From positions 1 through 33,691 of the forward strand of contig JAIRZE010000096.1 in the NCBI GenBank assembly GCA_031267375.1: a DNA stretch of 33,691 nt, given 5' to 3'. The notes below the pieces were generated by a model. The model saw nothing but the letters and a program-made list of their open reading frames with translations. It had not been told where the DNA came from and did no database searches. Within the stretch, counting starts at the first letter, position 1. Each line of letters begins with the position of its first letter. Shown here one piece after another: positions 877 to 33,003 of this stretch. A program made the translations under genes and the position numbers. This stretch comes from Rickettsiales bacterium. Lineage in GTDB: Bacteria; Pseudomonadota; Alphaproteobacteria; Rs-D84.

Positions 877-2559
877 ATGAAAAAAAAATATTTAATCACC
901 AGCGCGCTGCCTTATGTGAACGGCAATCTACACCTGGGGCATATGGTGGGCTGTCTTATTCCGTCCGATGTATACGCCAGATTCTGCCGCGCTATGGGGC
1001 GTGATGTCCTGTATGTGTGCGGAAGCGACGATCACGGAACGCCCGCAATGATAGCCGCCCAGAAAGCCGGCAAATCAGTAGAGCAATACACTGCGGAATG
1101 CTTTGCCGCGCAAAAAGAACAAACCGAAAAACTGTTTTTGTCTTTGGACGGCGGGTATGGGCGAACTCACACAGATTTGCAGACAAAGCTGGTGCATAAC
1201 TTATTCAGCCGTCTGGACGAAAACGGATACATAGAAGAAAAAGCAACCGTCCAGCCGTACGACGCGCAAGGACAGGCTTTTTTGTCCGACCGCCAGATAG
1301 AAGGAACTTGTCCGAAATGCGGTTATGAAAAAGCACGCGGCGACCAATGCGGAAAATGCGATTCTCTGCTGGACCCGTCGGATTTGATAAAGCCGTATGT
1401 GGCTGACAGCGGCAGCAAAGACATAGAATGGCGCGAAACCAAGAACTTGTTTTACCGCAATGATAAAACTATGTCCGCGGTTGCCGATTGGTTTGCTGAT
1501 AACCACGGTATGTGGTCCGCGGCGGCTGTTTCTAATACAAAAAAATATTTGTCGGAAGACATACCGAATCCGTCGGTCACGCGCGATTTGTCCTGGGGGA
1601 TTCCGGTTAACAAGCCCGGCTATGAAAACAAAGTGTTTTATGTATGGTTTGACGCGCCCTGGGGCTATGTTTCAATCTCGCAGGCTGCGAACAAGGAATG
1701 GGCGGATTGGTGGCACGGCGGCGAAAATTGCCATTACGCGCAGTTTATGGGAAAAGATAATACAAAGTTTCACTCTATATTTTTTCCGGGTCAAGAATTG
1801 GCTTTGAACGAGAATTGGAAAAAAGTAGACCAGCTGAAAGTTATGAACTTTTTGAATTTTGAAGGCGGAAAAGTATCAAAGTCGCTGCGCAACGGAATTT
1901 TCGCAAACGAGGCTTTAAGTGAAGCTCCGGCGGATTGCTGGCGCTATGCGTTTATGGCATCAGCGCCGGAAACAGACGACACGGACTTTACTATTCAGCG
2001 TTTCGCCGATATCGTGAACAAAGACTTGAACGGAATACTTGGGAACTTTGTTTCCCGCGTCTGCAAAATTACGGAAAAGAATTTCGGGACCAATGTGCCG
2101 AAACAATTAGCAATCAGCAATGGGCAATTAGCAATTGATGAAAATGAGCTGAATCAGAAATTATCAGAATTGACGGCCGCATTGGATGCCTGCGAATTCC
2201 GCGCGGCGGTTTCCGCATTGCGCGGGCTCTGGTCCGCAGGGAATGAATACTTTGCGAAACTGGAACCTTGGACATTGGTAAAGAACGGCGATTTGGACGC
2301 CGCTGGCGCGGTATTGAACGAATGCTTTCAGCTGATAGACTTTTACGCGCGCGTGTCCGCTCCGTTTATTCCGGCGGCCGCTGAAAAAATGCGAAGCATT
2401 TTTTCAATTAGCGATGAGCAATTAGCAATTAGCAATTGGCCGTCATCATACGAACGCCGGATTGCAGACGGGACGCAGTTTGCCGTGCCGGAAAATTTAT
2501 TCGCGCGCATAGACTCTGACAAAGTCGCGGAAATGACAGCCAAATATGTTAAAAAATAA
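877..2559 (+). CDS. metG: methionine--tRNA ligase (no C-terminal dimerization domain)
   Basis: TSALPYVNGNLHLGH, CPKC..CGKC Zn knuckle, YVWFDA, GKDN..FH, KVSKS. Confidence 0.97.
   Translation: MKKKYLITSALPYVNGNLHLGHMVGCLIPSDVYARFCRAMGRDVLYVCGSDDHGTPAMIAAQKAGKSVEQYTAECFAAQKEQTEKLFLSLDGGYGRTHTDLQTKLVHNLFSRLDENGYIEEKATVQPYDAQGQAFLSDRQIEGTCPKCGYEKARGDQCGKCDSLLDPSDLIKPYVADSGSKDIEWRETKNLFYRNDKTMSAVADWFADNHGMWSAAAVSNTKKYLSEDIPNPSVTRDLSWGIPVNKPGYENKVFYVWFDAPWGYVSISQAANKEWADWWHGGENCHYAQFMGKDNTKFHSIFFPGQELALNENWKKVDQLKVMNFLNFEGGKVSKSLRNGIFANEALSEAPADCWRYAFMASAPETDDTDFTIQRFADIVNKDLNGILGNFVSRVCKITEKNFGTNVPKQLAISNGQLAIDENELNQKLSELTAALDACEFRAAVSALRGLWSAGNEYFAKLEPWTLVKNGDLDAAGAVLNECFQLIDFYARVSAPFIPAAAEKMRSIFSISDEQLAISNWPSSYERRIADGTQFAVPENLFARIDSDKVAEMTAKYVKK
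2104..2138. repeat. CAATTAG-family heptamer array in frame in metG (QLAISNGQLAI)
   Basis: CAATTAG CAATCAG CAATGGG CAATTAG CAATTGA. Confidence 0.9.
2405..2439. repeat. CAATTAG-family array in frame in metG (ISDEQLAISNW)
   Basis: CAATTAG CGATGAG CAATTAG CAATTAG CAATTGG. Confidence 0.9.
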
Positions 2560-3094
2560 CCGCCGCATTGTCTTGATGTCTTGCTGCGCGCCGTGCAGCG
2601 CCGGCGCTATTTTGCAAATGAAAAATTCCGGCAATGATTTTTGCGTGCTGTTTTACAACCCGAATATCTTTCCAGAATCGGAATATAACAAGCGTCTGGC
2701 AGAGCAAATAAAACTGTGCGAAGCACACGGGGTAAAATATGCGGTCGGCGATTATAATCACGAGAGTTGGCTGGCCTGCGTCGGGGCAGGGCGCGAGAAC
2801 GAGCCAGAGCGGGGCAAGCGGTGCAGCGAATGCTTTCGGCACCGATTCGCATACGGGATAAAATGGGCGCGCGATAATGGCTATGACGCGATCGCAAGCG
2901 TTTTCGGCGTTTCGCGCTGGAAAAATCAACTTCAAGTTGATTTTTCCGCACAATTAGCAATTAGCAATGAGCAATTATCAATTATTTACCTGTCGGTTGA
3001 ATGGGATGAATCTTTGCGAATCGCCGAAAATAAAAGGCATAATTTTTACCGCCAGAATTATTGCGGTTGCGAATATTCAATCCGCAAAGTATAA
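2546..3094 (+). CDS. queH: epoxyqueuosine reductase QueH (DUF208)
   Basis: CCAPCS, FYNPNI, E.GKRC..CF..R, YRQNYCGC.YS motifs. Confidence 0.92.
   Translation: MLKNNRRIVLMSCCAPCSAGAILQMKNSGNDFCVLFYNPNIFPESEYNKRLAEQIKLCEAHGVKYAVGDYNHESWLACVGAGRENEPERGKRCSECFRHRFAYGIKWARDNGYDAIASVFGVSRWKNQLQVDFSAQLAISNEQLSIIYLSVEWDESLRIAENKRHNFYRQNYCGCEYSIRKV
2951..2985. repeat. CAATTAG-family array in frame in queH (QLAISNEQLSI)
   Basis: CAATTAG CAATTAG CAATGAG CAATTAT CAATTAT. Confidence 0.9.
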
Positions 3095-3114
3095 TCCCCG
3101 CAAAGGAGTTTTAT

Positions 3115-4008
3115 ATGTCATCAATTTTGGTTTTCCCGGGCCAAGGCAGCCAGTTCGTCGGTATGGGAAAAGAACTTTATGATAATTATCCCGCTGCACG
3201 CGAAGTCTTTGACGCGGTGGATGATGCCCTGGGGCAAAAACTTTCAGAGATTATTTTCAACGGCCCTATGGATGAACTGACGCTGACCGCGAATGTCCAG
3301 CCGGCTATCTTCGCCGTATCCTTGGCTATGCTGAAAGCGTCCGGCGCAGCATTGCCGGAATTTGTCGCCGGGCATTCATTGGGCGAATACAGCGCGCTTT
3401 GCGCCGCCGGCGCGCTTGGGGTGGCGGACACCGCGAAATTGCTGCGCCTGCGCGGGAATGCTATGCAGGAAGCGGTGCCGGTGGGCCTGGGGCTGACCGC
3501 AGTAATAATCAGCAATGAGCAATTAGCAATTAGCAATTTGTGCGCTAGGGCCGAATCGGAAACAGGTGAAATAGTTGATGTCGCAAATGACAATTCCCCC
3601 GGTCAGGTTGTAATTTCAGGGGCCAAGGCCGCGGTGGAACGCGCTATGGAACTTGCGAAAGAGCAGGGCGCAAAACGCGCTATGCCGCTGCAACTCTCGG
3701 CGCCGGTGCATTGCCGATTGCAGGAACCGACCGCTTCAATTCTTCGCGCGGCAATTGCCGGGACAGAATTCCGCGCGCCGGCCGCGACATTTATTTCAAA
3801 CCGCACTGCGGCGCCGATGACGGATGTTTCAGAGATAAAAGAATCGCTTGTCTATCAGATAACGCACGGTGTGCGCTGGCGCGAAACCATACTGTCGCTG
3901 CCAGGACTTGGGATAACAGAAACCGTGGAAGTTGGTCCAGGGAATGTTTTAACGGGCCTGACCACGCGAATCGTTCCGGAATTAACAGCAAGAAAATTGG
4001 AGATATAA
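3115..4008 (+). CDS. fabD: malonyl-CoA:ACP transacylase
   Basis: FPGQGSQ, GHSLGEY, ANDNSPGQVVISG, EVGPG; start moved to ATG 3115 after AAGGAG. Confidence 0.96.
   Translation: MSSILVFPGQGSQFVGMGKELYDNYPAAREVFDAVDDALGQKLSEIIFNGPMDELTLTANVQPAIFAVSLAMLKASGAALPEFVAGHSLGEYSALCAAGALGVADTAKLLRLRGNAMQEAVPVGLGLTAVIISNEQLAISNLCARAESETGEIVDVANDNSPGQVVISGAKAAVERAMELAKEQGAKRAMPLQLSAPVHCRLQEPTASILRAAIAGTEFRAPAATFISNRTAAPMTDVSEIKESLVYQITHGVRWRETILSLPGLGITETVEVGPGNVLTGLTTRIVPELTARKLEI
3506..3540. repeat. CAATTAG-family array in frame in fabD (ISNEQLAISNL)
   Basis: TAATCAG CAATGAG CAATTAG CAATTAG CAATTTG. Confidence 0.9.
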
Positions 4009-4009
4009 A

Positions 4010-4744
4010 ATGTTTTCATTAAAAGACAAAGTAGCATTGATAACAGGGGCTACCGGCGGAATCGGCGAAGGCATAGCCGCGGCATTCGCGGCGGCCGGCG
4101 CAACCGTCGTCATCACTGGGCGAAACGAGGAAAAGTTGAAAGGACAAATGGACAAATGGACAAATGGACATTATGTCGTTTCAGACTTATCACAACCTGG
4201 CGCTGCGGACGCCCTTGTCAAAGAGACAATTGAAAAAGCCGGCAAAATTGACATTCTGGTAAACAATGCCGGGATTACGAAAGACATTTTGCTGATGCGA
4301 ATGACGGACGAGCAGTTTGACGATGTCATCAATACGAACCTGCGCGCGACTTTTCAGCTGTGCCGCGCGGCGATTATGCCGATGATGAAGAACCGATTCG
4401 GCCGGATTATAAATATGTCGTCAATAATCGGCGCAATCGGCGGAGCGGGCCAGGCGAACTATGCCGCGTCCAAGGGCGGAATAATAGCAATGACAAAAAG
4501 CATAGCGGCCGAAGTCGCCAGCCGCGGAATTACAGCGAATGCGATCGCGCCGGGCTTTATCAAAACGCCTATGACGGATGTTCTGCCGGACGAATTAAAG
4601 GACGCGTATTTGAAGCAGATACCGGCGGGCCGATTCGGAGAACCCGCGGACATAGCGAACGCCTGTGTATTCTTGGCAAGCGCAGAGGCCGGATATATAA
4701 ACGGCCAAACTTTGCATATCAACGGCGGAATGGGACGGTTTTAA
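4010..4744 (+). CDS. fabG: 3-oxoacyl-ACP reductase
   Basis: TGATGGIG, NNAGIT, NYAASKGG, APGFI; follows fabD. Confidence 0.96.
   Translation: MFSLKDKVALITGATGGIGEGIAAAFAAAGATVVITGRNEEKLKGQMDKWTNGHYVVSDLSQPGAADALVKETIEKAGKIDILVNNAGITKDILLMRMTDEQFDDVINTNLRATFQLCRAAIMPMMKNRFGRIINMSSIIGAIGGAGQANYAASKGGIIAMTKSIAAEVASRGITANAIAPGFIKTPMTDVLPDELKDAYLKQIPAGRFGEPADIANACVFLASAEAGYINGQTLHINGGMGRF
4142..4170. repeat. GGACAAAT octamer array in frame in fabG (GQMDKWTNGH)
   Basis: GGACAAAT x3 plus GGACA. Confidence 0.9.
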
Positions 4745-4745: not shown

Positions 4746-4849
4746 AAATGAAAAGTGAAAAATGAAAAATAAATCCGGCGTTGCCGGATTTTTTAATTTC
4801 GCAAAATTGCGCCAGCAATTTTGTATTTCTCACTTTTCATTTTTCATTT
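4746..4849. repeat. inverted AAATGAA/TTTTCAT heptamer arms enclosing two hairpins
   Basis: Arms at 4746-4770 and 4826-4849; right arm contains the mnmG stop codon. Confidence 0.8.
4771..4794. terminator. terminator between convergent fabG and mnmG
   Basis: AAATCCGGC-GTT-GCCGGATTT plus T-tract. Confidence 0.8.
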
Positions 4850-6613
4850 CTTTACCGCCCGCAGCACCGCGATTATTCCCGCCGGCGTCATTCCCTGAAT
4901 TCTTGACAATGCCGCGATATTTTCCGGCCGCGCGCGGCTGAGTTTTTCTTTCAATTCATTCGTCAGGCCCGAAAGCAAAGAATAGTCAAACGCACCCGGA
5001 ATTTTTATATTTTTATCATTGTTATAGCGTGCGATCTCTCGGCTCTGGCGGGCGATGTATCCGGCATATATTTTGTCGTTATTTGTGATTTCAGATTTAT
5101 GATTTGCGAATTGCCTTTCGCATTCTTCCGCTGAAATCAATCTGGCCGCGACCGCCATTTCGCCCAGTCGGGCGATAGCATTATCGGCGCGCAGCTGCAA
5201 TCTGTATTCCGCGCGCGATGTGAACATACGATAGGGCTCGTCAATGCCCAGCGTCGTTATATCGTCAATCATCACGCCGATCATAGAGTTTGTGCGGTCA
5301 AGATTCAGGGCAAGACTGCCTTTTGACTTTTGACTTTTGCCCTCTGCGGCGCAAGCCGCGGCATTCGCCCCCGCGACCAGGCCCTGGGCGGCGGCTTCTT
5401 CATACCCGCTGGTGCCGTTTATTTGGCCGGCAAAGAACAATCCCGGAATATCTTTGCTTTCCAGATTTGCTTTCAAAGCGCGCGCGTCAATCGCGTCGTA
5501 TTCTATCGCATATCCATAGCGGGCAACGCGGCAATTTTCCAATCCCGGAATAGTGCGCAGAAATTTGTCCTGAACCAATTCGCCGAACGAAGTGGATAAT
5601 CCGTTGGGATAAATTAAATCAGAATCCAGACCTTCGGGTTCCAGGAAAATATGATGCGACTTGTGCTCTGGAAAACGCATAACCTTGTCTTCCAGGGACG
5701 GGCAATAGCGCGGGCCTATGCCCTGAATTGTTCCGTTGTACATCGGCGCGTCCGCAATATTGCCCTGTATTATTTGATGAGTCTCTTCCGTCGTATGCGT
5801 GATGAAACAGGAAATGGGCAAATGGTCAGATGGACAAATGGACATTTCGCTTTGTTCCTGCCCGTCTGTCCTTTTGCCCATTTGTCCTTCACTAAACCAA
5901 TTATGATTTTCTTCCGACGGCTGCGGCTCGCACACATTAAAATCTATACTGTCGGCATACAGACGCGCAGGCGTTCCGGTCTTTAAGCGCAGAATAGCAA
6001 AACCGGCTTTTCGCAATATTTCTGAAATATTTGCATCAGGCTCTTGATATGTCCCGTCGTCTTGCAAGCGCCCTGTTGGAATGCGCCGGGCCCCGCGCGT
6101 GGCGACACCGCGCAGAAAAGTCCCGGTTGTCAGCACCAATGCCTTTGCCCGGTATTTGTTATTTATGATTTTATTTTCCAGATCCAGCGATTGAACAGAC
6201 TCATAGATAATGGACAAAAGGTCAGATGGACAAAAGGACATTTTGTTTTGTTCCTGTCCTTTTGTCCTTTTGTCCTTTTGTCCTTTTAATAGCTCTTTTA
6301 CCACTTCCCGGTAAAGATTACGGTCTATCTGGGCCCGCAGAGCCTGTGTGGCGGCGCCGTGCGTGGAATTCAGCAGCCGCCAGTGAATGCCGGCGCGATC
6401 TGCGGCGCGCGGCATAATCCCGCCCAGCGCGGCCATTTCTGCAATCATTTGGGACTTTCCCGGCCCGCCCAGGGACGGATTGCAGGACATAGCGCCCAGA
6501 TCGCTTTCGGACTTTGTAAGCAGCAGGGTCTTTGCGCCAATGCGCGCGGCGGCAGCGGCGGCTTCAACGCCTGCGTGTCCGCCGCCGATAATAATGACAT
6601 CAAATTCATTCAT
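4844..6613 (-). CDS. mnmG: tRNA uridine 5-carboxymethylaminomethyl modification enzyme MnmG/GidA
   Basis: GGGHAG, MSCNPS.GG, RLKTGTP, GPRYCPSLEDK, GQINGTSGYEEAAAQG, EPYRMFTSRAEYRL. Confidence 0.97.
   Translation of the reverse strand: MNEFDVIIIGGGHAGVEAAAAAARIGAKTLLLTKSESDLGAMSCNPSLGGPGKSQMIAEMAALGGIMPRAADRAGIHWRLLNSTHGAATQALRAQIDRNLYREVVKELLKGQKDKRTKGQEQNKMSFCPSDLLSIIYESVQSLDLENKIINNKYRAKALVLTTGTFLRGVATRGARRIPTGRLQDDGTYQEPDANISEILRKAGFAILRLKTGTPARLYADSIDFNVCEPQPSEENHNWFSEGQMGKRTDGQEQSEMSICPSDHLPISCFITHTTEETHQIIQGNIADAPMYNGTIQGIGPRYCPSLEDKVMRFPEHKSHHIFLEPEGLDSDLIYPNGLSTSFGELVQDKFLRTIPGLENCRVARYGYAIEYDAIDARALKANLESKDIPGLFFAGQINGTSGYEEAAAQGLVAGANAAACAAEGKSQKSKGSLALNLDRTNSMIGVMIDDITTLGIDEPYRMFTSRAEYRLQLRADNAIARLGEMAVAARLISAEECERQFANHKSEITNNDKIYAGYIARQSREIARYNNDKNIKIPGAFDYSLLSGLTNELKEKLSRARPENIAALSRIQGMTPAGIIAVLRAVKK
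5081..5108. repeat. ATTTNNG heptamer array in frame in mnmG (ANHKSEITN)
   Basis: ATTTGTG ATTTCAG ATTTATG ATTTGCG. Confidence 0.7.
5320..5347. repeat. CTTTTGA heptamer array in frame in mnmG (AEGKSQKSK)
   Basis: CTTTTGA CTTTTGA CTTTTGC CCTCTGC. Confidence 0.8.
5812..5889. mobile_element. ~78 bp palindromic octamer-armed element, copy A, in frame in mnmG
   Basis: GGACAAAT-type left arm, spacer TTTCGCTTTGTTCC, inverted right arm; encodes GQMGKRTDGQEQSEMSICPSDHLPI. Confidence 0.75.
6210..6287. mobile_element. ~78 bp palindromic octamer-armed element, copy B, in frame in mnmG
   Basis: GGACAAAA-type left arm, spacer TTTTGTTTTGTTCC, inverted right arm; encodes KGQKDKRTKGQEQNKMSFCPSDLLSI. Confidence 0.75.
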
Positions 6614-7587: not shown

Positions 7588-10500
7588 ATGTCAAAAGCAA
7601 AGCACTATCCTGAAATCAACGCCCGCGCAGACTTTCCAAAGCTTGAAAAGGAAATTCTGGCTTTCTGGGATGCGGAAAAGATTTTCAACCAGACTATTGA
7701 AAACCGCGCCAGTGCGCCAGAATATGTTTTTTACGACGGACCGGCTTTTGGAAACGGACTTCCGCATTACGGGCATATTCTGACTTCCTATGTAAAGGAC
7801 CTTGTTCCGCGCTATCAGACTATGCGCGGGAAAAAAGTGCCGCGCAACATTGGCTGGGACTGCCACGGCCTGCCGGCCGAGCTGGAAGCTGAAAAATACC
7901 TAAAAATTTCAGGAAAAGCCGAAATCGCGAAATTCGGAATAAAAGAATTCAACGCCGTCTGCACAGAGCGCGTGCAGATGTATGTCGGCGAATGGGAAAA
8001 GTTTTTGACAAGAATGGGCCGCTGGATTGACTATTCGGACACTTACCGCACTATGGATTTGAACTATACCGAAAGCGTCATATGGGCATTCAAGAAATTG
8101 TATGACAAGGGCTTGATTTATGAAGGGACTTATTCAATATGGTACTCTTACGGCGCGGAGTCAACCGTTTCAAATTCCGAGACAAAGCAGGACGACTGCT
8201 ATCGCGAGCGGGAAGACACCAGCGTTACCGTGTCATTCCTTTTGGACGAAGAATTTGACGGGAAACCGACGCATATATTGGCTTGGACGACAACGCCCTG
8301 GACATTGGTCGCAAACTTCGCATTATGCGTTGGCGAAGACATAGACTACGCCGTTATGGAAGAGAATAACCAGTATTATGTAATCGGAGACAAGGCGCGC
8401 GAGCGTTATAAACAGCAACTGCAAAACGCAAGCTTTGTCAAGACGGTCAAAGGGCGCGATTTAGTGGGCAAGACTTACACGCCGCTGTTTGATTTCTTTG
8501 GTGATGTAAAACACGCGTTCAAGGTTGTCTCCGCCGACTATGTTACGATCGATGACGGAACCGGAATCGTCCACCTTGCGCCGTTTGGGGAAGAAGACTT
8601 GATAATTATGGAGCGCGAGGCTATTTCTTGGCACGCCCCCGTAGACAGTCAGGGAAAATTTACAAAGCAGGTTGGACAGTATGCCGGAATGCTTGTCTTT
8701 GATGCAATAGACCCAATTGTATCGGATCTTAAAAAATCAGGAAAGCTGATAAAGAAAGAGCAATACAGGCATATGTATCCGCATTGCTGGCGCACGGGTG
8801 TCCCGCTTATAAATATGCCGCTGAACAGCTGGTATGTGGCGGTTGATAAGTTTAGGGATCGCATTGGCGAATTAAATAAAAAAATTGATTGGATTCCGGA
8901 TCATATCCGCGACGGGCAAATGGGCAAGTGGCTGGCTGGCGCAAGGCCTTGGGCCATATCGCGCTCCCGATTTTTCGGCGCGCCGATCCCGGTTTGGAAA
9001 TCCGACAACCCGGAATATCCGCGGATTGATGTATACGGCAGCATTGCCGAGCTGGAACGTGACTTTGGTATAAAGATCACCGATTTTCACCGACCGTATA
9101 TAGACGAACTGACTCGGCCGAATCCGGATGACCCGACTGGAAAATCAATGATGCGCCGCATTCCGGAAGTATTGGATTGCTGGTTTGAATCCGGCGCTAT
9201 GCCTTTTGCGTCCAAGCATTATCCTTTTGAAAACAAGGATTGGTTTGATTCTCACTTTCCCGCTGATTTTATCGTGGAATACATAGCTCAAACGCGCGGC
9301 TGGTTTTATAATATGATGATTCTGGCAACGGCATTGTTTGATAACGAGCCATTCAAAACTTCGCTGTGCCACGGCGTGGTTTTGGGAAACGACGGCAAGA
9401 AAATGTCAAAATCCCTGCGCAATTATCCCGACCCTATGGATGTTATAGAAACATTGGGATCCGATTCATTGCGATGGTTTCTGATGTCTTCAACAATTCT
9501 GTCCGGGGGTAATATGTCCGTTGCGCGCGAAGATATCGCAAAGTCCGCACGCGAAGTCATAATGCCGCTGTGGAATACATTTTATTTCTTTACGCTTTAT
9601 GCAAACGCCGAAGGAATAAAAGCGAAAGAAATCGCAACCGCGACAGATCCGCTGGATAAATACATATTGTCAAAACTTCGCACTATGGTTCTGCGCGTCA
9701 CGGAATTGCTGGATGCGTCGCGCATAAATGAAGCCGCGCCATTATTCTCGGCATTTATGGAAATCTTGAACAACTGGTACATACGCCGCTCGCGCCCGCG
9801 CTTTTGGGACGGAAAAGACACGGCCGCATTTGATACTCTGTATACCGTACTGACCGTGCTATCCAAAGCATTGGCGCCTTATATGCCGATGACCGCGGAA
9901 TTTATTTACAAATCGCTGACTGGTGATAAATCCGTTCATTTGCAAAACTGGCCAGATGTATCAGCTATCGCGGAAAATCATAATATTGAAAAAGCAATGG
10001 ATATCGTGCAATCTGTGGTTGCCGTTGGAAAAGCCTTGCGCGAGAATGCAAGACTGCGCAATCGTTTGCCGCTGGCAAAAATGACTATCGCCGGCGCGGA
10101 TTTATCAGAGTACGCGGATATAATAAAAGATGAATTGAATGTAAAATCTGTTGAATTTACAACCAATATTTCATCCGTTGCCGATTCGTTCGTATATTTG
10201 ATTACCCCGAAAATCGGGGAAAGATTAGGCGGCGCTTTGAAAGAAATTATCCCAGCAGTAAAAGCCGGTAATTACGAAATCAAAGACGGGCAGCTTTATG
10301 TCCTTTGTCCTTCGTCCTTCGTCCTTCGTCCTTCGGAATACGAAAATCGTCTGACTGTAAAGCCCGGAATCACAGGCGCGGCATTGCCCGACAATACCGC
10401 CGTAGTCGTTCTGGATACAAATCTAACGCCGGAACTGATTGCCGAAGGCCTGGCCAACGACGCCCTGCGCTTTATTCAGGACACGCGCAAACTGGTTGGC

Positions 10501-10686: not shown

Positions 10687-11333
10687 TGAATCCGGAAACT
10701 TATTTCAAAATAATGCCGCAGCACTTGGATATGACGGTGCGCACGGAATTGTATTATGTGAACGAATTCACTTTCGCCGTCGCCGTCATTCTTTCCGCCC
10801 AGGCGACCGACAAGAAAGTAAATGAAATTACCCCGGCGCTTTTTGCGGTCGCTGATACGCCGGAAGCAATGCTTACACTCAGTGAATCCGGCTTGAAAGA
10901 GCATATAAAGGTTATTTCTTTTTTCAATAACAAGGCAAAGAATATCCTGGCATTGTCTGAACTGTTAAACAAAAGGACAGATGGGCAAAAGGACAAATGG
11001 ACATTTCCAGTAAAATACCACAATCGCGATGAATTGATGAAGCTGCCGGGCATAGGCCAGAAAACGGCAAATGTTATAATGAATGTTCTTTGGGGCGCGC
11101 CGACGATCGGCATAGACACCCACGCATTCCGCCTGGCGCACAGATTCGGCTGGGTCGGCGATTCTGATAATACGCCAGAGAAAGTAGAAGAAAAATTATT
11201 AAAATTGATTCCGAAAAAATACCACAATGCCGTGAATCATATTATGGTCCTGCACGGGCGATATATCTGCAAGGCGCAGAAACCTTTATGCGCGGATTGC
11301 CCGGTGAATAAATTTTGTCCTGCGCGGACTTGA
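10683..11333 (+). CDS. nth: endonuclease III
   Basis: LSAQATD, LPGIGQKTAN, IDTH, C-x6-C-x2-C-x5-C Fe-S motif. Confidence 0.96.
   Translation: MMNPETYFKIMPQHLDMTVRTELYYVNEFTFAVAVILSAQATDKKVNEITPALFAVADTPEAMLTLSESGLKEHIKVISFFNNKAKNILALSELLNKRTDGQKDKWTFPVKYHNRDELMKLPGIGQKTANVIMNVLWGAPTIGIDTHAFRLAHRFGWVGDSDNTPEKVEEKLLKLIPKKYHNAVNHIMVLHGRYICKAQKPLCADCPVNKFCPART
10970..11003. repeat. GGACAAA(A/T) octamer array in frame in nth (KRTDGQKDKWT)
   Basis: CAAAAGGA CAGATGGG CAAAAGGA CAAATGGA CA. Confidence 0.88.
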
Positions 11334-14938: not shown

Positions 14939-14940
14939 TT

Positions 14941-15085
14941 TAGTGGTCAGTGGTTAGTTGTTAGTGGTCAGTTCAAGTATGACAAATTCTAATAAAAAAT
15001 ACCACCGTAAAGTGGTATTTATGTGGACAGTGTTGTGGCCGTGGAAAGATAAAACTGACCACTGGCCACCAATCACTGACCACTA
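14941..15085. repeat. inverted AGTGGT(C/T) heptamer arms around a terminator-like hairpin
   Basis: Arms at 14941-14973 and 15053-15085; hairpin AAATACCAC/GTGGTATTT at 14997-15020; rplT stop lies inside the arm. Confidence 0.9.
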
Positions 15086-15721: not shown

Positions 15722-15751
15722 CAGTGGTTAGTTGTCAGTGGTCAGTGGTTA
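15722..15751. repeat. AGTGGT(C/T) array in rpmI leader
   Basis: CAGTGGT TAGTTGT CAGTGGT CAGTGGT TA. Confidence 0.88.
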
Positions 15752-16687: not shown

Positions 16688-16749
16688 TGGACAAAAGGGC
16701 ATAAGGACAAAAGGTCATTGTCCTTATGTCCTTATGTCCTTATGTCCAT
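16687..16749. repeat. spacerless palindrome of octamer arms between mreC and mreD
   Basis: ATGGACAAAAGGGCATAAGGACAAAAGGTCA / TGTCCTTA x3 TGTCCAT. Confidence 0.9.
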
Positions 16750-18982: not shown

Positions 18983-19115
18983 TGGTCAGGGGTTAGTGGT
19001 TAGCAATATGATTGCTTGATAATTATTTTCGTAATTAAATAAAATTAATTTTCATAAGCGACATACTGCTGACCACTAACCACTGACAACTGACCACTAA
19101 ACGAGCGGAGCGAGT
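18974..19115. mobile_element. MITE-like unit: inverted AGTGGT(C/T) arms, 62 bp AT-rich core, GAGCGGAGCGAG cassette
   Basis: Core 19002-19063 matches the reverse complement of 31016-31077 at 53/62 positions. Confidence 0.75.
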
Positions 19116-20256: not shown

Positions 20257-22545
20257 ATGAACTTGCTTATCGTTGAATCTCCGTCCAAGGCAAAGACTAT
20301 TGAAAAATATCTTGGAAAAGGCTGGCGCGTCATCGCGTCCGTCGGGCATATCCGCGATCTGATTCCCGAAAACGGAAGCGTGGATACTGATAAAGACTTC
20401 GCTATGAAATGGCAGATTATGCCGGGCAAGGAAAAAGTAATAAAGCAAATTCTGGGAGAGGTTAAAAAAGCCGACGCTGTATATCTGGCAAGCGATCCGG
20501 ACCGCGAAGGGGAAGCCATTGCCTGGCACATATTGGAAATTCTGAACGAAGAGAAAGCGCTGGCCGGCAAAAAGCTTTACCGCGTCGTTTACCACGAGAT
20601 TACAAAAAAAGCAGTAGAGGCCGCCCTGGCCGCCCCGCGCGAGATTGATCAGAATCTGGTTGACGCATACTTGGTGCGGCGCGCGCTGGATTTTCTGATC
20701 GGATTCGGTGTATCGCCGCTGCTGTGGCGGCGCAACCTGGGCAAATCTGCCGGGCGCGTGCAATCCGTCGCGGTGCGGCTGGTGGTGGACCGCGAGCGAG
20801 AAATAGAAGCCTTTAACCCGCAAGAGTATTGGAGTCTGGATGCAATAGGGCAAAAGGCAAAAGGCAAAGGGCAAGAATTCTCGGCCAGACTGACCAAGTT
20901 TGATAATAATAAAATTGAAAAATTTACAATCGCAAACAAGGCGCAAATGGACGAGATTTTGTCTGCCCTCTGCCCTTTGCCCTCTGACTTGCCTATTCCG
21001 GCAAGCGTTGTTTCTGTTGAAAAGAAAAAGACCCAGCGCAAGCCGGCCGCGCCTTTCACCACCAGCACTTTGCAACAGGAAGCGGCGCGAAAACTCTATT
21101 TCTCTTCCAAGCGCACGATGAGCGCGGCCCAGAAATTATACGAGCAGGGCCTTATAACCTATATGCGAACCGACGCGACCAACCTGTCCGCGGACGCGGT
21201 TGCTGAAATACGCGAGTTTCTGGCGCGCGAATACGGCGCAGACTTTGTTCCAAAGACACCGAATGTTTACGCCACGAAATCAAAGAACGCCCAGGAAGCG
21301 CACGAAGCAATTCGGCCAACGCATTTTGAAGGCAAAAGGCAAAAGGCAGAAGGCATAGACGGGGACGAATTCAAACTGTATGAACTTATTTGGAATCGCA
21401 CCCTGGCCTGTCAGATGACCAATGCAGAATTTGATTCCGTCGCCGTTGATATTGAAACAGAAAATAAAAAAGCTATATTCCACGCGGTCGGCACAACCCA
21501 AACTTTCGCGGGATTTCTGAAAGTCTATCAGGAAGGGAAAGACGAATCGGATGACGACGATGCGGACACAAAATTGCCGCCGCTGGCCGTCGGCGACGCT
21601 ATATCCATAACGAAACTGCTTCCGGAACAACATTTCACAATGCCGCCGCCGCGCTATACCGAGGCATCGCTTGTAAAAAAACTGGAAGAACTTGGCATTG
21701 GCCGCCCGTCCACATACGCTACGATTATGAGCACTATTGTTGATCGCCAATATGTAGAACAGGACAAATCGCGCAGGTTTATCCCGACCCCCGGCGGCTG
21801 GGTCATAGCGGCATACTTGTCGCATTATTTCAAAGACTTGATTGATGTCAATTTCACGGCAAAGACAGAAGATACCTTGGACGCGGTGTCAAACGGCGAA
21901 GAAAAGAAAAACGCAGCTCTGCGCGCTTTCTGGACGCCCACGGAAAAATTGATAGATGCCGCCGCGGATGTCAAGACAACCGAAATTATTAACGAACTGA
22001 ATGCCAATTTGCACGATCATATTCACAAGGTTGTCGGGGATAAATGTCCGGAATGCGGCGGCGAAATATTATTAAAGCTGGGCAAATACGGGGCGTTTGT
22101 TTCCTGCAAAAATTATCCGGACTGCAAGTTTATTCAAAACTTAAAGGACGAAGGACAAAGGACAAAGGACGAAGGGGGCGCGGCCCAATCTTCGGCCCTT
22201 GACTTTGGGGACGGAATAAGTTTCAAAATCGGGCGATTCGGGCCGTACATAACCGACGGGACAAAGAATGTATCAGCACGGAAATACACGGCGGAAACTA
22301 TGACTTTGGAAATCGCGAAAGAGCTGCTGGCCGGCGCCGGCGCCAAGACAGAGGCTATAAAGCTGGGCGTAAATCCGGCGACGGGCAAGGAAATACTTTA
22401 TTACGCCAGCGGACGGTACGGCGCGTATATTTCATCAAACAAGGTGAATGTGTCTGTGAAAGAGCAGCCCGACTTGGAAACGGCGGCGGAATTGATAAAC
22501 AACAAAAAGCCCGCTGCAAAAAAAACTTTTGGAAAGAAAAAATAA
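20257..22545 (+). CDS. topA: DNA topoisomerase I
   Basis: IVESPSKAKTI, DPDREGEAIAWH, SAGRVQS, ITYMRTD, GIGRPSTYA, one Zn ribbon. Confidence 0.97.
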   Translation: MNLLIVESPSKAKTIEKYLGKGWRVIASVGHIRDLIPENGSVDTDKDFAMKWQIMPGKEKVIKQILGEVKKADAVYLASDPDREGEAIAWHILEILNEEKALAGKKLYRVVYHEITKKAVEAALAAPREIDQNLVDAYLVRRALDFLIGFGVSPLLWRRNLGKSAGRVQSVAVRLVVDREREIEAFNPQEYWSLDAIGQKAKGKGQEFSARLTKFDNNKIEKFTIANKAQMDEILSALCPLPSDLPIPASVVSVEKKKTQRKPAAPFTTSTLQQEAARKLYFSSKRTMSAAQKLYEQGLITYMRTDATNLSADAVAEIREFLAREYGADFVPKTPNVYATKSKNAQEAHEAIRPTHFEGKRQKAEGIDGDEFKLYELIWNRTLACQMTNAEFDSVAVDIETENKKAIFHAVGTTQTFAGFLKVYQEGKDESDDDDADTKLPPLAVGDAISITKLLPEQHFTMPPPRYTEASLVKKLEELGIGRPSTYATIMSTIVDRQYVEQDKSRRFIPTPGGWVIAAYLSHYFKDLIDVNFTAKTEDTLDAVSNGEEKKNAALRAFWTPTEKLIDAAADVKTTEIINELNANLHDHIHKVVGDKCPECGGEILLKLGKYGAFVSCKNYPDCKFIQNLKDEGQRTKDEGGAAQSSALDFGDGISFKIGRFGPYITDGTKNVSARKYTAETMTLEIAKELLAGAGAKTEAIKLGVNPATGKEILYYASGRYGAYISSNKVNVSVKEQPDLETAAELINNKKPAAKKTFGKKK
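20842..20997. repeat. inverted GGCAAAA/T(C/T)TGCCC arms flanking native topA sequence
   Basis: Arms at 20842-20876 (IGQKAKGKGQ) and 20962-20997 (SALCPLPSDLP). Confidence 0.8.
21331..21358. repeat. GGCAAAA array in frame in topA (GKRQKAEGI)
   Basis: GGCAAAA GGCAAAA GGCAGAA GGCATAG. Confidence 0.85.
22144..22175. repeat. AAGGAC(G/A) array in frame in topA (KDEGQRTKDEG)
   Basis: Reverse complement of the ileS GTCCTTC family. Confidence 0.85.
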
Positions 22546-25336: not shown

Positions 25337-25524
25337 AGCTCACTCCGTTCGCTAGCCACCAGCCATCAGCCCATAGTCGCCAGCCCATAGTTAATTAAGT
25401 TATTGTAAATATATATTTAATAAATTACAATAAAAATGACTAACTTACTATGGGCTGACGGTTATAAGCTGATAGCTATGGGCTATGGGCTGTGGGCTGG
25501 CGGCTATGGGCTGGCGGCTATGGG
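25337..25524. repeat. inverted CTATGGG/CTGGCGG arms around AT-rich spacer, with RBS cassette
   Basis: Left arm at 25352-25391, right arm of 11 heptamers at 25448-25524. Confidence 0.9.
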
Positions 25525-26197
25525 CTATCTTTGGGACGAATTTAACATAAAAACATTCCCCGCGCAAACTATTGTTTTCCGGGATGGCGTTTATCAGCCA
25601 GACTTGTCAACATTGCCGAACAATCTGAACTTTGATAAAAAACACGATTTGCCGGTTCATATCATATTTATTGGCGAAATAGCCGGTAAAAACGATATAT
25701 TTATTGAAATTTCGGCCGAAAATATGCAAGTCTTTTTCAGCGCAAAAATTACAAACAAAAAGCCGGCCTTTTTGAACATTTTTATCAAAAACACCGGTAA
25801 AAATTCTGAATTTTCCGGAAAAATATTGGCGCATAACCATTCAAGGCTGGAAATTAACGAAAAAGCCGGTCATTTTGCCAAAAACACCGGTATTTTTATG
25901 CATACCAGGTTAATCGCCGGCCCTGATTCAGACTCGCGATTATCCGCTATTGCCGAAATTGCCAAAAATTGTGAAAATTGCAAATCCGACATCGGGTTTT
26001 CCGCTTTGGCCGCGCAAAACGCAAAAATTATTTTCCAACCGGCGCAACAAATCGCATCCGCGCCAGATGACGCGACGCACAGCGCGGGGGTATGGCGTGC
26101 GACGGACGCCCAGATTGAATATTTGCGCGGCGGGGGCCTTTGCGAAACAGAGATAAAAGAAATTTTGCAAGAATCCTTTACAAATGACTTTCTTTGA
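25436..26197 (+). CDS. SufB/SufD-like Fe-S assembly protein (start uncertain: 25436, 25478 or 25520)
   Basis: C-terminal ATHSAGV....AQIEYLRGGGL.E.E.KEIL.ESF resembles the SufB/D C-terminus; beta-helix-like composition. Confidence 0.7.
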   Translation: MTNLLWADGYKLIAMGYGLWAGGYGLAAMGYLWDEFNIKTFPAQTIVFRDGVYQPDLSTLPNNLNFDKKHDLPVHIIFIGEIAGKNDIFIEISAENMQVFFSAKITNKKPAFLNIFIKNTGKNSEFSGKILAHNHSRLEINEKAGHFAKNTGIFMHTRLIAGPDSDSRLSAIAEIAKNCENCKSDIGFSALAAQNAKIIFQPAQQIASAPDDATHSAGVWRATDAQIEYLRGGGLCETEIKEILQESFTNDFL

Positions 26198-27473: not shown

Positions 27474-27505
27474 TTGACCATTAACCCCTGACCACTGACC
27501 ACTGA
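27474..27505. repeat. TGACCAC array directly before virB3
   Basis: TGACCAT TAACCCC TGACCAC TGACCAC TGA. Confidence 0.85.
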
Positions 27506-30234: not shown

Positions 30235-30326
30235 CAATGAACAATGAACAGTGAACAATGAACAATTTTTTTGTAAAAATATTTATAGCAATTCATTGTT
30301 CATTGTTCATTGTTCATTGTTCATTT
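30235..30326. repeat. inverted CAATGAA/TTCATTG arms overlapping the start of the next CDS
   Basis: 4 units at 30235-30262, 5 inverted units at 30292-30326. Confidence 0.92.
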
Positions 30327-30887: not shown

Positions 30888-30890
30888 AAA

Positions 30891-30996
30891 AGTGGTTAGT
30901 GGTCAGGGGTCAGTGGTTAGCAAACAAAGAAGATAAAAATATTTGTCCAATATATTGGACACTTCATTAACCACTAAACACTCACCACTGAGCACT
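30891..30996. repeat. inverted AGTGGT(C/T) arms around spacer with TGTCCAATATATTGGACA palindrome
   Basis: Arms at 30891-30920 and 30967-30996. Confidence 0.88.
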
Positions 30997-31004
30997 TGGA
31001 AATA

Positions 31005-31091
31005 ATGGTTAGTTGTGTCGCTTATGAAAACCAATTTTAATTAATTGTGAAAATAATTATCACGCAAACACACTGCTAACCCCTAACCGCT
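31005..31091. mobile_element. second copy of the 62 bp core with eroded arms
   Basis: 31016-31077 matches the reverse complement of 19002-19063 at 53/62 positions; followed by AACCCCTAACCGCT. Confidence 0.75.
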
Positions 31092-31092
31092 T

Positions 31093-32403
31093 TTACTTCC
31101 CCAAGCACAATTGTCCGAATACCGCATCAGCTATTTCAGAGGCTTCAATAACGCCCAGTATCTGGCCTATTTCATCGCTTGCGATTCTTATATGCTCTGC
31201 AAACAAATCCATATTCGCTGATTGTTTGCCGGCCATTTCCAATTCTTCCGCGGCTGCAATCAAATGCGCCCGCGCCCGCTGATTTACATTTATATCCGAT
31301 TCGGCGCCGTCCAGCGCGTTATGTATTTTTTGTTTTATCAATTCCAGCAATTCCGGAATGCCAGCGCCGGTAAGGGCCGATACAGAAAGGACAAAAGGAC
31401 AGATGGACAAATGGGCAGAAGTGTCGGATAAGTCAGATTTATTATAAACAATTATCTCGTTATTATTTGTATTGTCCTTTTGTCCTTTTGTCCTTTTGTC
31501 CATTACTTTTATCACTAAATCTGCGTTTTTAATTTCAGCGTTGGTTTTTTCTATGCCGATTTTTTCTATGACATCGTCCGTTTCGCGCAAGCCCGCGGTA
31601 TCCGTCAGCCGGACCAAATACCCGTCAATATCCAATTCCGCGCTTATCGCGTCGCGCGTAGTGCCAGGAATATCTGAAACTATGGCCCGCGATTCCCCAA
31701 CCAGCCGATTGAACAAAGACGATTTTCCGGCGTTTGTTTCCCCGGCCAAGACTATATTAAATCCGCTGCGGACCGCGCGCGCCGCCGCATACCTGGAAAT
31801 GGCTCCGCTGATTTCTGTGTGCAGAGCGCTTGCGCGTGCCAATAATTTATCCTTTATATTTTCCGGCAATTCATCCTTTGGATAATCCAGAATCGCGGCG
31901 GCGTATGCTGCGATCTCTATCATCTGCGCGCGCCAGTTTTCATAAGCCGCGCTGTCTGATCCCGTCATAGATTTCAGCGCCGCGGCGCGCTGTTTGTCCG
32001 TGCGCGCGGATAATAATCCGGCCAGTCCGTCCGCCGCCACCAGATCCATTTTGTTATTTTGAAAAGCGCGGCGCGTGAACTCTCCCGGCTCTGCCAGGCG
32101 AAATCCCTGGCCGCGCAGGAATTCATAAACTTTTTCTATAACAGCATAGCTGCCGTGGGTATGCAGTTCGATCACATCTTCGCCGGTAAAGGAACTCGGC
32201 GCCTGGAAATAAATCGCAATGCATTGATCAATAGGTCCGCCCCCATTATCGCGCAGATTTATCAAATAAGCGCGTCGCGGAATTATGTCGCCGCTTTGAA
32301 TTATCTTTGAAAAAAATTCGCGCAAGCCAGTCCCGCTGATGCGAATCACTGCAACGCCGGCTTTGCCGTGGCCCGAAGATAATGCGAATATAGTATCTGT
32401 CAT
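31093..32403 (-). CDS. mnmE: tRNA modification GTPase MnmE/TrmE
   Basis: DTIFALSS, SFTGEDV.E...HG, GETNAGKS, GTTRD, DTAG, NKSD, terminal LCLGK. Confidence 0.97.
   Translation of the reverse strand: MTDTIFALSSGHGKAGVAVIRISGTGLREFFSKIIQSGDIIPRRAYLINLRDNGGGPIDQCIAIYFQAPSSFTGEDVIELHTHGSYAVIEKVYEFLRGQGFRLAEPGEFTRRAFQNNKMDLVAADGLAGLLSARTDKQRAAALKSMTGSDSAAYENWRAQMIEIAAYAAAILDYPKDELPENIKDKLLARASALHTEISGAISRYAAARAVRSGFNIVLAGETNAGKSSLFNRLVGESRAIVSDIPGTTRDAISAELDIDGYLVRLTDTAGLRETDDVIEKIGIEKTNAEIKNADLVIKVMDKRTKGQKDNTNNNEIIVYNKSDLSDTSAHLSICPFVLSVSALTGAGIPELLELIKQKIHNALDGAESDINVNQRARAHLIAAAEELEMAGKQSANMDLFAEHIRIASDEIGQILGVIEASEIADAVFGQLCLGK
31386..31503. repeat. inverted octamer arms flanking the native NKSD motif of mnmE
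   Basis: Arms at 31386-31419 (AHLSICPFVLS) and 31472-31503 (MDKRTKGQKD). Confidence 0.9.
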
Positions 32404-33003
32404 TTATTTATTCGTTATTTCTTTCAATGCCAGCGGCACCAGTTTTTCAATTGAATATCCCGCGTATTCGCGAATCAGTTTCTGCACAGTTTCCAGCACA
32501 TCGCCGCGCCGGTATCCCAAAGATTCCAGCGCCGACATCAGATCGTTATATAAAGATGATGAATTGTCAGAAGGGCTGGTGTCCATTTGTCCTTTTGTCC
32601 ATTTGCCCATAATGACTTTCCCTTTTAATTCCAGACAGATTTTCTCGGCCACCTTTTTTCCAACCCCTGGCGCCGCGGTTAATGTTTTTGAATCATTCGT
32701 GGCCAATGCCGTCAGCAGAGCGTCTTCGTTAAATGCGCCCAGTATCGCCATTGCAACCTTTGGCCCCACGCCGGACACGCTGGTCAATTTATTGAATAAA
32801 TCCTGCTGGGCCGCGCTTGCGAATCCGAACAGGCGAATGGAATCTTCGCGAACGATTGTTTCTATCCATAATGTAGCCTGCTGTTCGTGGCCGGTGGCCC
32901 GCAGATTTGCCGGCACGAAAACTTTATATCCGACGCCGCCGCACATAAGGATTATGTAATCTTCGCCTGTGTAATCAAGAAATCCTTGCAATTTGCCTAT
33001 CAT
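32404..33003 (-). CDS. ruvA: Holliday junction branch migration protein RuvA
   Basis: MIGKLQG, GGVGY, VREDSIRLFGF, VSGVGPK.A, PGVGKK.AEKI.LELK, ALESLGY. Confidence 0.97.
   Translation of the reverse strand: MIGKLQGFLDYTGEDYIILMCGGVGYKVFVPANLRATGHEQQATLWIETIVREDSIRLFGFASAAQQDLFNKLTSVSGVGPKVAMAILGAFNEDALLTALATNDSKTLTAAPGVGKKVAEKICLELKGKVIMGKWTKGQMDTSPSDNSSSLYNDLMSALESLGYRRGDVLETVQKLIREYAGYSIEKLVPLALKEITNK
32580..32610. repeat. octamer array in frame in the RuvA interdomain linker (MGKWTKGQMD)
   Basis: TGTCCATT TGTCCTTT TGTCCATT TGCCCAT. Confidence 0.9.

Follow-up and report, generated by a model that had tools for sequence, protein, structure and literature searches.

Tandem arrays of 7- and 8-nt units in frame within core genes of an uncultured gut alphaproteobacterium: candidate foldback-type repeat elements

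The window analysed here, a contig of 33,691 nt, belongs to a genome assembled from a metagenome, that of an uncultured alphaproteobacterium of the gut close to 'Candidatus Enterousia' (G000; a 917,217-bp assembly of 109 contigs, 78.5% complete and 1.2% contaminated, in which the window is contig C34), and it carries 22 tracts of short tandem units of 7 or 8 nt that lie in frame inside 13 genes. We put at about an even chance the reading that these tracts are copies of several families of small non-autonomous repeat elements of foldback type, similar in behaviour to the Rickettsia palindromic elements (RPE). Counted in its favour were the excess of arrays over shuffled sequence, the fixed length of the arms, their inverted partners, a filter by stop codons, lineage-specific bursts, the occurrence of comparable arrays in sister genera and the tolerance of the protein sites concerned.

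Abundance of the arrays in the window and in the genome

The tracts were mapped by Tandem Repeats Finder (TRF) combined with open reading frame (ORF) mapping and searches for unit families; TRF returned 56 rows for the window, with period-7/8 tracts sometimes called at a period of 14, 16 or 21. Five tracts lie in mnmG, four in topA, two each in metG and mnmE, and one each in queH, fabD, fabG, ileS, nth, mrdA, a SufBD-like ORF, an unassigned ORF of 209 amino acids (aa) and ruvA. A first-pass annotation of the window had listed about 21 tracts in these 13 genes, with four in mnmG; TRF agrees with its positions, and all seven unit families that it named are present.

A TRF scan of the whole of G000 gave 1214 rows, among them 447 with period 7 and 179 with period 8, against 19-27 and 18-30 in five dinucleotide shuffles (172-198 rows in total). 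The excess is about 19-fold for period 7 and about 7-fold for period 8, and the phenomenon described from the window is genome-wide. After merging of overlaps, 608 non-redundant period-7/8 arrays occupy 17,016 bases, or 1.9% of G000; 317 lie wholly in ORFs, 85 run across ORF ends and 206 are intergenic, and at least one array was found in 206 of the 872 ORFs. The ORFs come from a crude longest-ORF caller, by which 86.7% of G000 is coding, and since this caller extends starts upstream, the count of genic arrays, 50 of 226 of which fall in the first decile of their ORF, is somewhat inflated.

The multi-family character that had been proposed is borne out by 97 canonical heptamers and 70 octamers, about ten of them abundant, with AATTAGC alone accounting for 69 TRF rows. 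The recurrent peptides are also real, GQKDKR occurring in 12, CPFVL in 10 and QLAISN in 7 of the 872 ORFs. Genome-wide orientation counts in ORFs agree with the use of both strands and all frames (AAAAGGC, 20 sense and 22 antisense; AAAAGGAC, 26 and 12).

Arms, hairpins and inverted pairs

The length of the arrays in G000 has its mode at 31-33 nt for both 7- and 8-nt units. AATTAGC arrays (n=65) have a median length of 33 nt (interquartile range 31-33), 40 of them beginning with AATTA and 47 ending with AATTA or CAATT, and octamer arrays have a median length of 32 nt, with a GGACA end in 47 of 83. Imperfect 28-mers with an identical order of variant units were found at 6-7 loci, so that whole arms must have been copied rather than grown locally; the same observation excludes telomerase-like synthesis from a 7-nt template. 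Slippage microsatellites have open-ended copy numbers and locus-specific units, whereas the lengths seen here are clustered and the units are common to many loci. What recurs is a discrete module of about 32 nt and not a free-running microsatellite.

An inverted partner lies no more than 150 nt away for 256 of the 458 arrays of at least 24 nt, where a complement-only null gives 9. Among 506 arrays of at least 20 nt, 230 form 115 inverted pairs called by TRF, 34 have a degenerate partner and 242 are solo arms (130 in ORFs, 86 intergenic and 26 at ORF edges). The gap between paired arms is at most 30 nt in 56 pairs, 31 of which are inside ORFs, and 31-160 nt in the other 59. Ten of 29 octamer hairpins have a common 14-nt loop consensus and seven have loops of 1-2 nt. 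Spacers of the 59 long-gap pairs fall into clusters of 10, 4, 3 and 3 with 39 unique sequences, so that a conserved core is present at 20 of 59, and the clustered spacers are of three kinds: an element of about 65 nt of the form CAGTATG...CATACTG, a cassette with a Shine-Dalgarno sequence, ATG and about ten codons, and a terminator-like cassette. The conserved cores look like terminators, ribosome-binding sites or operators.

RNA folding gave long stems for all eight arm pairs examined in the window (z -4.4 to -12.1). Between fabG and mnmG, inverted AAATGAA/TTCATTT arms enclose a terminator-like core (4746..4849) that recurs at C97:19745-19840, and between pheS and rplT, AGTGGTY arms enclose a terminator-like hairpin (14940..15084; RNA fold -63.7 kcal/mol, z -8.1). 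AGTGGTT arms between mrdA and rodA flank a conserved 68-nt core, CAGTATG...CATACTG (18974..19100; -63.5 kcal/mol, z -12.1), which falls in the spacer clusters of 10 and 3 loci. An octamer hairpin with a 4-nt loop stands at the end of mreC (16689..16747; -40.1 kcal/mol, z -10.9), and CAATGAA/TTCATTG inverted arms surround the called start of the 209-aa ORF (30235..30325, + strand; -48.1 kcal/mol, z -10.8).

AGTGGTY arms at 30891..30989 enclose a core with an 18-nt perfect palindrome, TGTCCAATATATTGGACA, which recurs between such arms at C109:3648-3766, C19:1465-1598 and C88:22800-22923 and which, from its sequence, looks like an operator for a dimeric DNA-binding protein. A recurrent cassette is found between GGCAAAA arms at C35:124-233, C4:7317-7418, C59:8107-8212 and C33:3572-3693; it has a Shine-Dalgarno-like GGAG, an ATG and about ten conserved codons (MKIVLV...) and might serve as a portable start of translation or as an N-terminal leader.

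Partner arms are more complementary to each other than to non-partners in the intergenic families AATCAGT (p~0.0005), AGTGGTY (p~0.004) and GGCAAAA (p~0.01), but not in the mostly genic octamer (p~0.69) and AATTAGC (p~0.23) families. The confinement of this extra complementarity to intergenic families suggests that the stem is under selection between genes but not within them. As a source of the pairs, copying of an arm from its partner by local fold-back was considered; it is unsupported in the genic families, where the extra partner complementarity is missing.

These observations bear on the explanation that the arrays are selected cis-elements, namely sites bound by an abundant DNA- or RNA-binding protein, or RNA stems acting on transcript ends, transcript stability or the initiation of translation, the genic copies being a by-product. 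It would account for the 37 of 59 long-gap pairs that lie at ORF edges, around terminator-like hairpins, a Shine-Dalgarno sequence with ATG or the 18-nt palindrome, for the many AATTAGC arrays that adjoin terminator T-runs and for the complementarity of intergenic partners, which fits stem selection. Regulatory roles have also been proposed for the intergenic heptamer repeats of Beggiatoaceae, Xanthomonas and Nostoc, according to the accessible portions of the respective papers (PMC4679880, PMC4692102). Nevertheless, 130 of the 242 solo arms lie in ORFs with no evident regulatory logic, the two orientations are about equally frequent in ORFs, the families differ between sister genera and genic partner arms have no extra complementarity. 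RNase III is present in 30 of 31 relatives regardless of their array load, and we regard the cis-element explanation as rather improbable. Loss of RNase III, which might have permitted long stems in mRNA, was likewise rejected, G000 being among the 30 genomes with the enzyme.

Stop codons and survival in genes

Units of 7 or 8 nt cycle through all phases in every frame; on a given strand, a perfect array therefore leaves either all three frames open or none. In seven families both strands are open, and their 125 arrays of at least 28 nt are distributed with 104 in ORFs, 11 at ORF edges and 10 in intergenic DNA. Arrays of families with stops on both strands hardly ever lie in ORFs (AATCAGT, 1 in an ORF, 10 at edges and 11 intergenic; AACCACT, 0, 4 and 5). 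AGTGGTY, which the first-pass annotation had placed between genes, is intergenic, and genome-wide none of 19 AGTGGTY-type arrays of at least 28 nt (ACCACTG and AACCACT families) lies in an ORF. AATTAGC, closed if perfect, occurs in genes only as degenerate arrays whose variant unit removes the in-frame TAG. Genic survival is filtered by stop codons.

Effect on the host proteins

In order to see what the arrays do to proteins, the genes of the window were aligned with orthologues from up to 16 genomes of the same family (syntenic 20-kb regions and gene-centred loci). The tracts of metG, queH, fabD, fabG, ileS, nth, topA and mnmE are absent from sister genera, where homologues with the same peptides were accordingly not seen, and this absence points to lineage-specific remodelling of loops and of some helices. 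The remodelling of protein loops proposed in the first-pass annotation stands as regards lineage-specific loops, while helices are affected too and the unit is a discrete arm of about 32 nt, often in an inverted pair, rather than an open-ended array.

For 42 genic arrays from nine genomes the net change in protein length has a median of +2 aa, against a median arm of 11 aa. The change is at most 2 aa in 23 arrays, 3-6 aa in 12, 7-12 aa in one and more than 12 aa in six, and these six are compact hairpins, including two in mnmG of the window (+14.5 and +18). Solo arms come with the loss of a similar length of the target, and compact hairpins add length. Insertion in frame, as originally described, thus holds for the hairpins, whereas a solo arm is usually written over native sequence of about its own length. 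The genes are intact and of orthologue length, as had been noted: TopA, with its four arms, has 762 aa, compared to 733-772 aa in 10 of 11 aligned relatives and 871 aa in G001.

The two CAATTAG arms of metG each add a net 4 aa in the orthologue alignment, the first being 33 nt long (2104..2136, + strand; peptide QLAISNGQLAI) and the second encoding DEQLAISN (2405..2437, + strand), both called by TRF. A CAATTAG arm in queH (PF02677; 2951..2984, + strand) changes the length by +4 aa by anchor count and by about 0 by alignment. The AATTAGC arm of fabD (3507..3538, + strand) has a net change of 0, and in fabG an GGACAAAT octamer arm (4142..4170, + strand; TRF and orthologue alignment) adds 2 aa. 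The GTCCTTC heptamer arm of ileS (10300..10335, + strand; CPSSFVLRPS; TRF and alignment) amounts to +6 aa relative to the orthologue median and about 0 relative to orthologues having the same subdomain. In nth, the octamer arm (10969..11003, + strand; KRTDGQKDKWT) adds 2 aa, and in ruvA (32404-33003) an octamer arm (32580..32610, - strand; GKWTKGQMD) lies in the linker between the HHH and C-terminal domains (RuvA_N at aa 1-60, HHH_5 at 70-127 and RuvA_C at 152-196). TRF also called a CAGCCCA/TAGCCGC tract with a period of 14 in mrdA (18603..18633, + strand), and a CTATGGG/CTGGCGG array lies at the N-terminus of the SufBD-like ORF (25448..25528, + strand), which matches PF01458 at its cut-off score.

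topA and mnmE contain inverted pairs that are split by native sequence. The topA pair consists of a GGCAAAA arm (20849-20874) and a TCTGCCC arm (20962-20986), between which lie 87 nt of native sequence that aligns with 11 of 11 orthologues; the net changes of the arms are +3 and +5 aa (20849..20986, + strand; RNA fold z -4.4). In mnmE, an octamer pair (31386..31501, - strand; -35.4 kcal/mol, z -5.9) brackets native sequence including the NKSD GTPase box; the segment aligns with 10 orthologues, and the arms account for about 0-3 and +1-5 aa. The two other topA arms are an AAGGCAA arm encoding GKRQKAEG, net +3 aa (21329..21355, + strand), and an AAAGGAC arm (22143..22175, + strand) that falls in the variable linker following the zinc ribbon.

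The tracts of mnmG comprise two octamer hairpins, one of the form arm, 14-nt loop, arm with a net gain of about 14 aa (5812..5889, - strand; -36 kcal/mol, z -5.6) and one (KGQKDKRTKGQEQNKMSFCPSD) with a net gain of about 18 aa (6213..6287, - strand; -37.3 kcal/mol, z -8.3), together with a CTTTTGA x2.9 array encoding EGKSQKSKGS (5320..5339, - strand), the loop of which has other repeats in sister genera, and a weak tract at 5001-5026. In the structural model of MnmG both hairpin inserts are predicted to be unstructured, with a predicted local distance difference test score (pLDDT) below 50 at aa 113-128 (6213..6287) and 234-266 (5812..5889); pLDDT is also below 50 at aa 427-431, within the loop of the CTTTTGA array. 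The FabD tract, by comparison, is modelled as a confident strand-turn-helix (pLDDT 88), in which strand E144-150, the turn and helix H157-168 span the tract and local blocks score 86-97.

The repeats held by the same loops of MnmG and Nth differ from genus to genus. GC-rich inserts of sister genera stand in frame in these array-bearing loops (mnmG, L003, L015 and L016; nth, L102, L108 and L115, the latter being palindromic), which is RPE-like behaviour of a second repeat class. GC-rich palindromes similar to repetitive extragenic palindromic (REP) sequences occur in G000 as well, at up to 14 loci each (e.g. C13:~300-370, C28:~120-190 and C7:3138-3287; one unit reads ...TTCCCGCCTGCGCGGGAATGAC), mostly in intergenic DNA, and 371 of the 505 non-array repeat intervals of G000 are intergenic. 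In the C-terminal third of MnmG a segment of up to about 60 alignment columns is missing in G000 and in 15 of 16 aligned family members; it is kept by G012 and three more distant relatives.

Origin of the arrays

The building block is an arm of about 32 nt in which four to five tandem 7- or 8-mers, differing slightly from one another, follow each other; it stands alone, forms a compact hairpin of 60-80 nt with a short loop and an inverted arm, or flanks a conserved core or native sequence. Under the foldback-element reading, a copying process would seed such arms throughout the genome, in coding and intergenic DNA alike, and purifying selection would then purge copies that bring in a stop codon, break the frame or hit an intolerant protein site. 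Survivors in genes would be open-frame copies in surface loops, linkers and replaceable helices, and these would give rise to the recurrent 'alien' peptides. The copying enzyme may be encoded in the part of the genome that is unassembled (20%), may represent an unknown family or may be the replication and repair machinery of the host itself.

Several results weigh against this reading. Solo arms mostly overwrite a similar native length, which is atypical of simple insertion, and the fabD arm exchanges a structured strand-turn-helix for the same length without a gap in eight orthologues. Since the arms of topA and mnmE bracket native conserved segments, these pairs did not arrive as one inserted unit. 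The stop-free families have 83% of their arrays in ORFs and 8% in intergenic DNA, where coding DNA makes up 87% of the genome, a genic share above that expected if two-thirds of genic insertions of random length were lethal; some arrays scored as genic probably lie upstream of the true start, as the enrichment in the first decile indicates. As in the window, where no mobilising enzyme had been seen, no match to the transposase profiles Y1_Tnp (PF01797), TnpB (PF07282), rve (PF00665) or DDE_Tnp_1 (PF01609) was found in the 78.5%-complete G000, although the Phage_integrase profile identified two tyrosine recombinases. Inspection by eye of the two mnmG hairpins, the only ones so inspected, revealed no clear target-site duplication. 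Finally, the data are a single 78%-complete metagenome assembly without read validation, and the ORF calls are crude.

One possible explanation, though an unlikely one in our judgement, dispenses with a mobile element: a replication or repair process of the host, by template switching or by short-patch ectopic gene conversion among dispersed arrays, would copy an array of about 32 nt over an unrelated site, length for length, and would keep the arrays alike by concerted evolution. The near-zero net change of most solo arms (median +2 aa; at most 2 aa in 23 of 42, and exactly 0 in fabD), the orthologue length of TopA despite its four arms, the lack of transposase matches and the absence of any depletion of stop-free families in ORFs are all as expected from such a process, as are a MnmG site with genus-specific units of equal length and register in seven genera and the sharing of AATTAGC between genera in genus-specific variants. 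Gene conversion, however, normally needs flanking homology, which the unrelated targets do not have, and the compact hairpins, which have a 14-nt loop in common, add a net +14 and +18 aa. The fixed ends and length of the arms fit a discrete element better than variable patches, and in the mostly genic families an arm is no more complementary to its partner than to non-partners.

Replacement length for length and inverted arms around native segments are not explained by any described mobile-element mechanism. It is conceivable, but to be viewed with considerable doubt, that in this lineage a length-preserving 'overwriting' process of a kind not described before writes modules of 7/8-mers, about 32 nt long, over unrelated DNA, often as inverted arms around native sequence and with essential coding sequence included, and that this is neither classical transposition nor homologous gene conversion. 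If so, a quarter of the proteome would have been patch-edited without gene loss.

Homing of diversity-generating retroelements (DGR) substitutes sequence length for length, and seeding by a reverse transcriptase (RT) was considered in this light: cDNA of array-bearing RNA would be written in by the DGR enzyme of G000 or a relative of it, preserving length as in mutagenic retrohoming. G000 encodes an RT (PF00078, 66 bits) beside a template/variable repeat pair. In the 18 other family genomes, an RT is present in the array-rich G001, G002, G007, G011 and G013 and in G010, whose arrays were not sampled, whereas the eight genomes sampled as array-poor gave no RT match; because of the phylogenetic relatedness of the genomes this co-occurrence is weak evidence. 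No RT was found in three array-rich genomes, including G016 (97% complete, 3 contigs), the variants among arrays show no adenine-specific pattern, and the RT's own template repeat is not an array. Seeding by RT appears very improbable to us. The presence of an RT follows array richness only loosely.

The DGR-like locus itself lies at C6:5439-8329 (locus L119 covers C6:5960-9565), with an RT of 354 aa at C6:7265-8329 whose LGNQTSQ motif is similar to that of DGR RTs. No repeat of at least 40 nt was found beside the RT within 3.6 kb; a wider blastn comparison found a repeat pair of 121 nt, 89% identical (5439-5559 and 6211-6331), in which 12 of 13 mismatches are at adenines of the first copy. 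The second copy is inside an ORF of 298 aa without a family match.

Should this picture hold, a genome of about 1.1 Mb, which has little space for dispensable DNA, tolerates modules in about a quarter of its ORFs, including those for aminoacyl-tRNA synthetases, topoisomerase I, MnmE/MnmG and enzymes of fatty-acid synthesis, and allows one to ask, as in a natural experiment, what amount of foreign peptide its core enzymes absorb and at which sites. In gut metagenomes, arrays of this kind interrupt assemblies, and gene calling and homology searches may be misled by them.

Comparison with known repeats

The RPE are repeats found in coding sequence, with 44 insertions of elements of about 150 bp in genes of R. 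conorii, as summarised in the accessible part of a review of miniature inverted-repeat transposable elements (MITE; PMC10969869). As far as that text describes them, RPE and the elements of G000 are alike in being short palindromic repeats of several families in an alphaproteobacterial host with a reduced genome, in having many in-frame copies at tolerated sites of unrelated housekeeping genes, where they add recurrent peptides, and in having no known transposase that moves them. Palindromic insertion in frame is seen in G000 in the mnmG hairpins (+14-18 aa) and in the 31 short-gap pairs inside ORFs. In contrast to RPE, the arms in G000 are tandem 7/8-mers of about 32 nt and whole elements measure 60-130 nt as against about 100-150 bp, a solo arm usually takes the place of native sequence, paired inverted arms may enclose a native part of a gene, the load of arrays is much greater (206 of 872 crudely called ORFs) and the host belongs to the order Rs-D84, not to Rickettsia or the Rickettsiales.

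Short tandemly repeated repetitive (STRR) sequences are dispersed heptamer repeats of cyanobacteria. Dispersed tandem heptamers are likewise present in G000 (447 period-7 rows), in a host that is not a cyanobacterium and not mainly between genes. Related repeats of Xanthomonas and Nostoc (GGGAATC-type) and of Beggiatoaceae (TAACTGA) are mostly intergenic in the accessible text of the reports on them (PMC4692102, PMC4679880). To the extent that these sources describe them, STRR and the repeats of Xanthomonas, Nostoc and Beggiatoaceae share with the arrays of G000 the dispersal of short heptanucleotide arrays, the use of several units, a preference for about four units and a patchy occurrence across lineages. 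The arrays of G000 differ from them in that 317 of 608 are in ORFs, octamers occur beside heptamers and more than half stand in inverted pairs. RPE appear to be the functionally nearest case and dispersed heptamer repeats the architecturally nearest, the elements being set beside RPE by description and not by sequence; in effect they behave as RPE do, with STRR-like heptamer arrays as their material. The comparison with RPE and STRR, as drawn in the first-pass annotation, is apt as an analogy only.

MITE, REP sequences and REP doublets (REPIN) are, like the elements of G000, small non-autonomous dispersed repeats that form hairpins with inverted ends, some with terminator- or promoter-like cores, and the terminal inverted repeats of MITE have a counterpart in the 256 of 458 arrays with a partner within 150 nt. 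Unlike them, the elements of G000 have no parent insertion sequence or REP-associated tyrosine transposase (RAYT) that could be found (0 matches to the Y1 transposase profile PF01797 in G000), their arms are internally repetitive and many arms are solo. Eukaryotic foldback transposons have long inverted arms of short tandem subrepeats around a variable centre; they are of kilobase scale and linked to a transposase, and the elements of G000 may be likened to them in architecture only, by analogy.

Full-text searches, in main texts, found no paper on in-frame 7/8-mer arrays in Rs-D84 or Enterousia. The word 'repeat' does not occur in the accessible part of the Enterousia/Rs-D84 genomics paper (PMC12306168).

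Distribution among relatives and in metagenomes

The array load of relatives was sampled from syntenic regions of about 20 kb only. In these samples eight sister genera have 4-16 arrays of at least 24 nt per approximately 20 kb, mostly with different units, and eight other genera, most of them with a lower G+C content, have 0-2. A single clade of array-rich genera was considered and is not recovered in a quick, unfinished tree of MnmG and IleS.

When up to 3 mismatches are allowed, (GGACAAAA)x3 is found 96 times in G000 and not at all in 120 other genomes of the family (reversed control, 0); this octamer family has multiplied only in the lineage of G000. For the AATTAGC pattern the matches number 133 in G000 and 1-8 in each of six relatives, where the variants are specific to the genus (AAATAGC in G002, AATGAGC-rich arrays in G013), and 24 relatives have none. 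Families have been expanded in a lineage-specific manner. At one MnmG site, period-7 arrays are found in seven genera in the same register and length with genus-specific units, an AATC core being read in three frames, from which it follows that some of the arrays are old and evolve in concert.

An exact 24-mer of the octamer is present in 107 metagenome stretches. Among 80 of these that were compared with G000, none has a megablast match to it, and their proteins are 26-66% identical to those of G000; some carry several 7/8-mer array families, partly inside ORFs. In particular, the metagenome loci L163, L165, L170, L198, L202 and L229 have 5-15 period-7/8 arrays of several families per 10 kb, with 4 of 6 arrays in L165 and 5 of 6 in L229 inside ORFs of at least 100 aa. 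The phenomenon is a habit common to several sister genera and to unrelated metagenome contigs and hence not confined to the family of G000.

The distribution also speaks to the question of artefacts of assembly or binning. G000 is a single metagenome assembly in 109 contigs without read validation, its contigs C9, C10 and C21 begin or end in arrays, and proteins of the window are singletons in a protein collection. Against an artefact, the tracts preserve the frame inside long intact ORFs, independently assembled sister genera have arrays of the same kind, including at the orthologous MnmG site, and an artefact would not produce a pattern that obeys the stop-codon rule, which makes this explanation scarcely credible.

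How heptamer arrays spread is a question dating from the STRR sequences of cyanobacteria, and it becomes more testable here, since genome size is very small, each family can be tied to a lineage (for the octamer family, 96 matches in G000 as opposed to none in 120 relatives) and sister genera both with and without arrays can be compared.

Other features of the window and its genome

PheS of the window is 57-66% identical to its eight closest records, which are from uncultured gut or rumen Alphaproteobacteria and 'Candidatus Enterousia'. The latter has been assigned to the order Rs-D84, members of which have genomes below about 1 Mb according to the accessible portion of the report (PMC12306168), and same-family relatives of G000 have genomes of 0.7-1.1 Mb at 85-100% completeness. 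A 16S rRNA gene was not found in the G000 assembly.

The window carries an ordinary set of housekeeping genes, comprising metG, queH, fabD, fabG, mnmG, ileS, nth, pheT, pheS, rplT, mreC, mrdA, rodA, topA, dnaG, ychF, the SufBD-like ORF, virB4, mnmE and ruvA. At gathering scores the only known RNA families in it are two tRNAs, one of which is tRNA-Val at 529-605; a TAGTGAA array called by TRF (447..472) lies in the intergenic region upstream of it, with no overlapping ORF. TRF also called solo arms at 15722..15749 (CAGTGGT, intergenic), 27475..27505 (TGACCAC, intergenic) and 33019..33043 (CAGTGGT, at the end of an uncharacterised ORF). Four proteins of the window are singletons in a collection of 15 billion proteins, from which FabD, with the start codon chosen here, is absent.

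IleS (7588-10686) scores 672 and 626 bits with MupA/MupB-like models, below their cut-offs, and in a quick tree the IleS of G000 and G013 share a long branch and may be of a different type from that of other genera. Positions 27815-30226 of this reduced genome's window encode an ATPase of the VirB4/TrbE family (PF03135), a component of a type IV secretion system.

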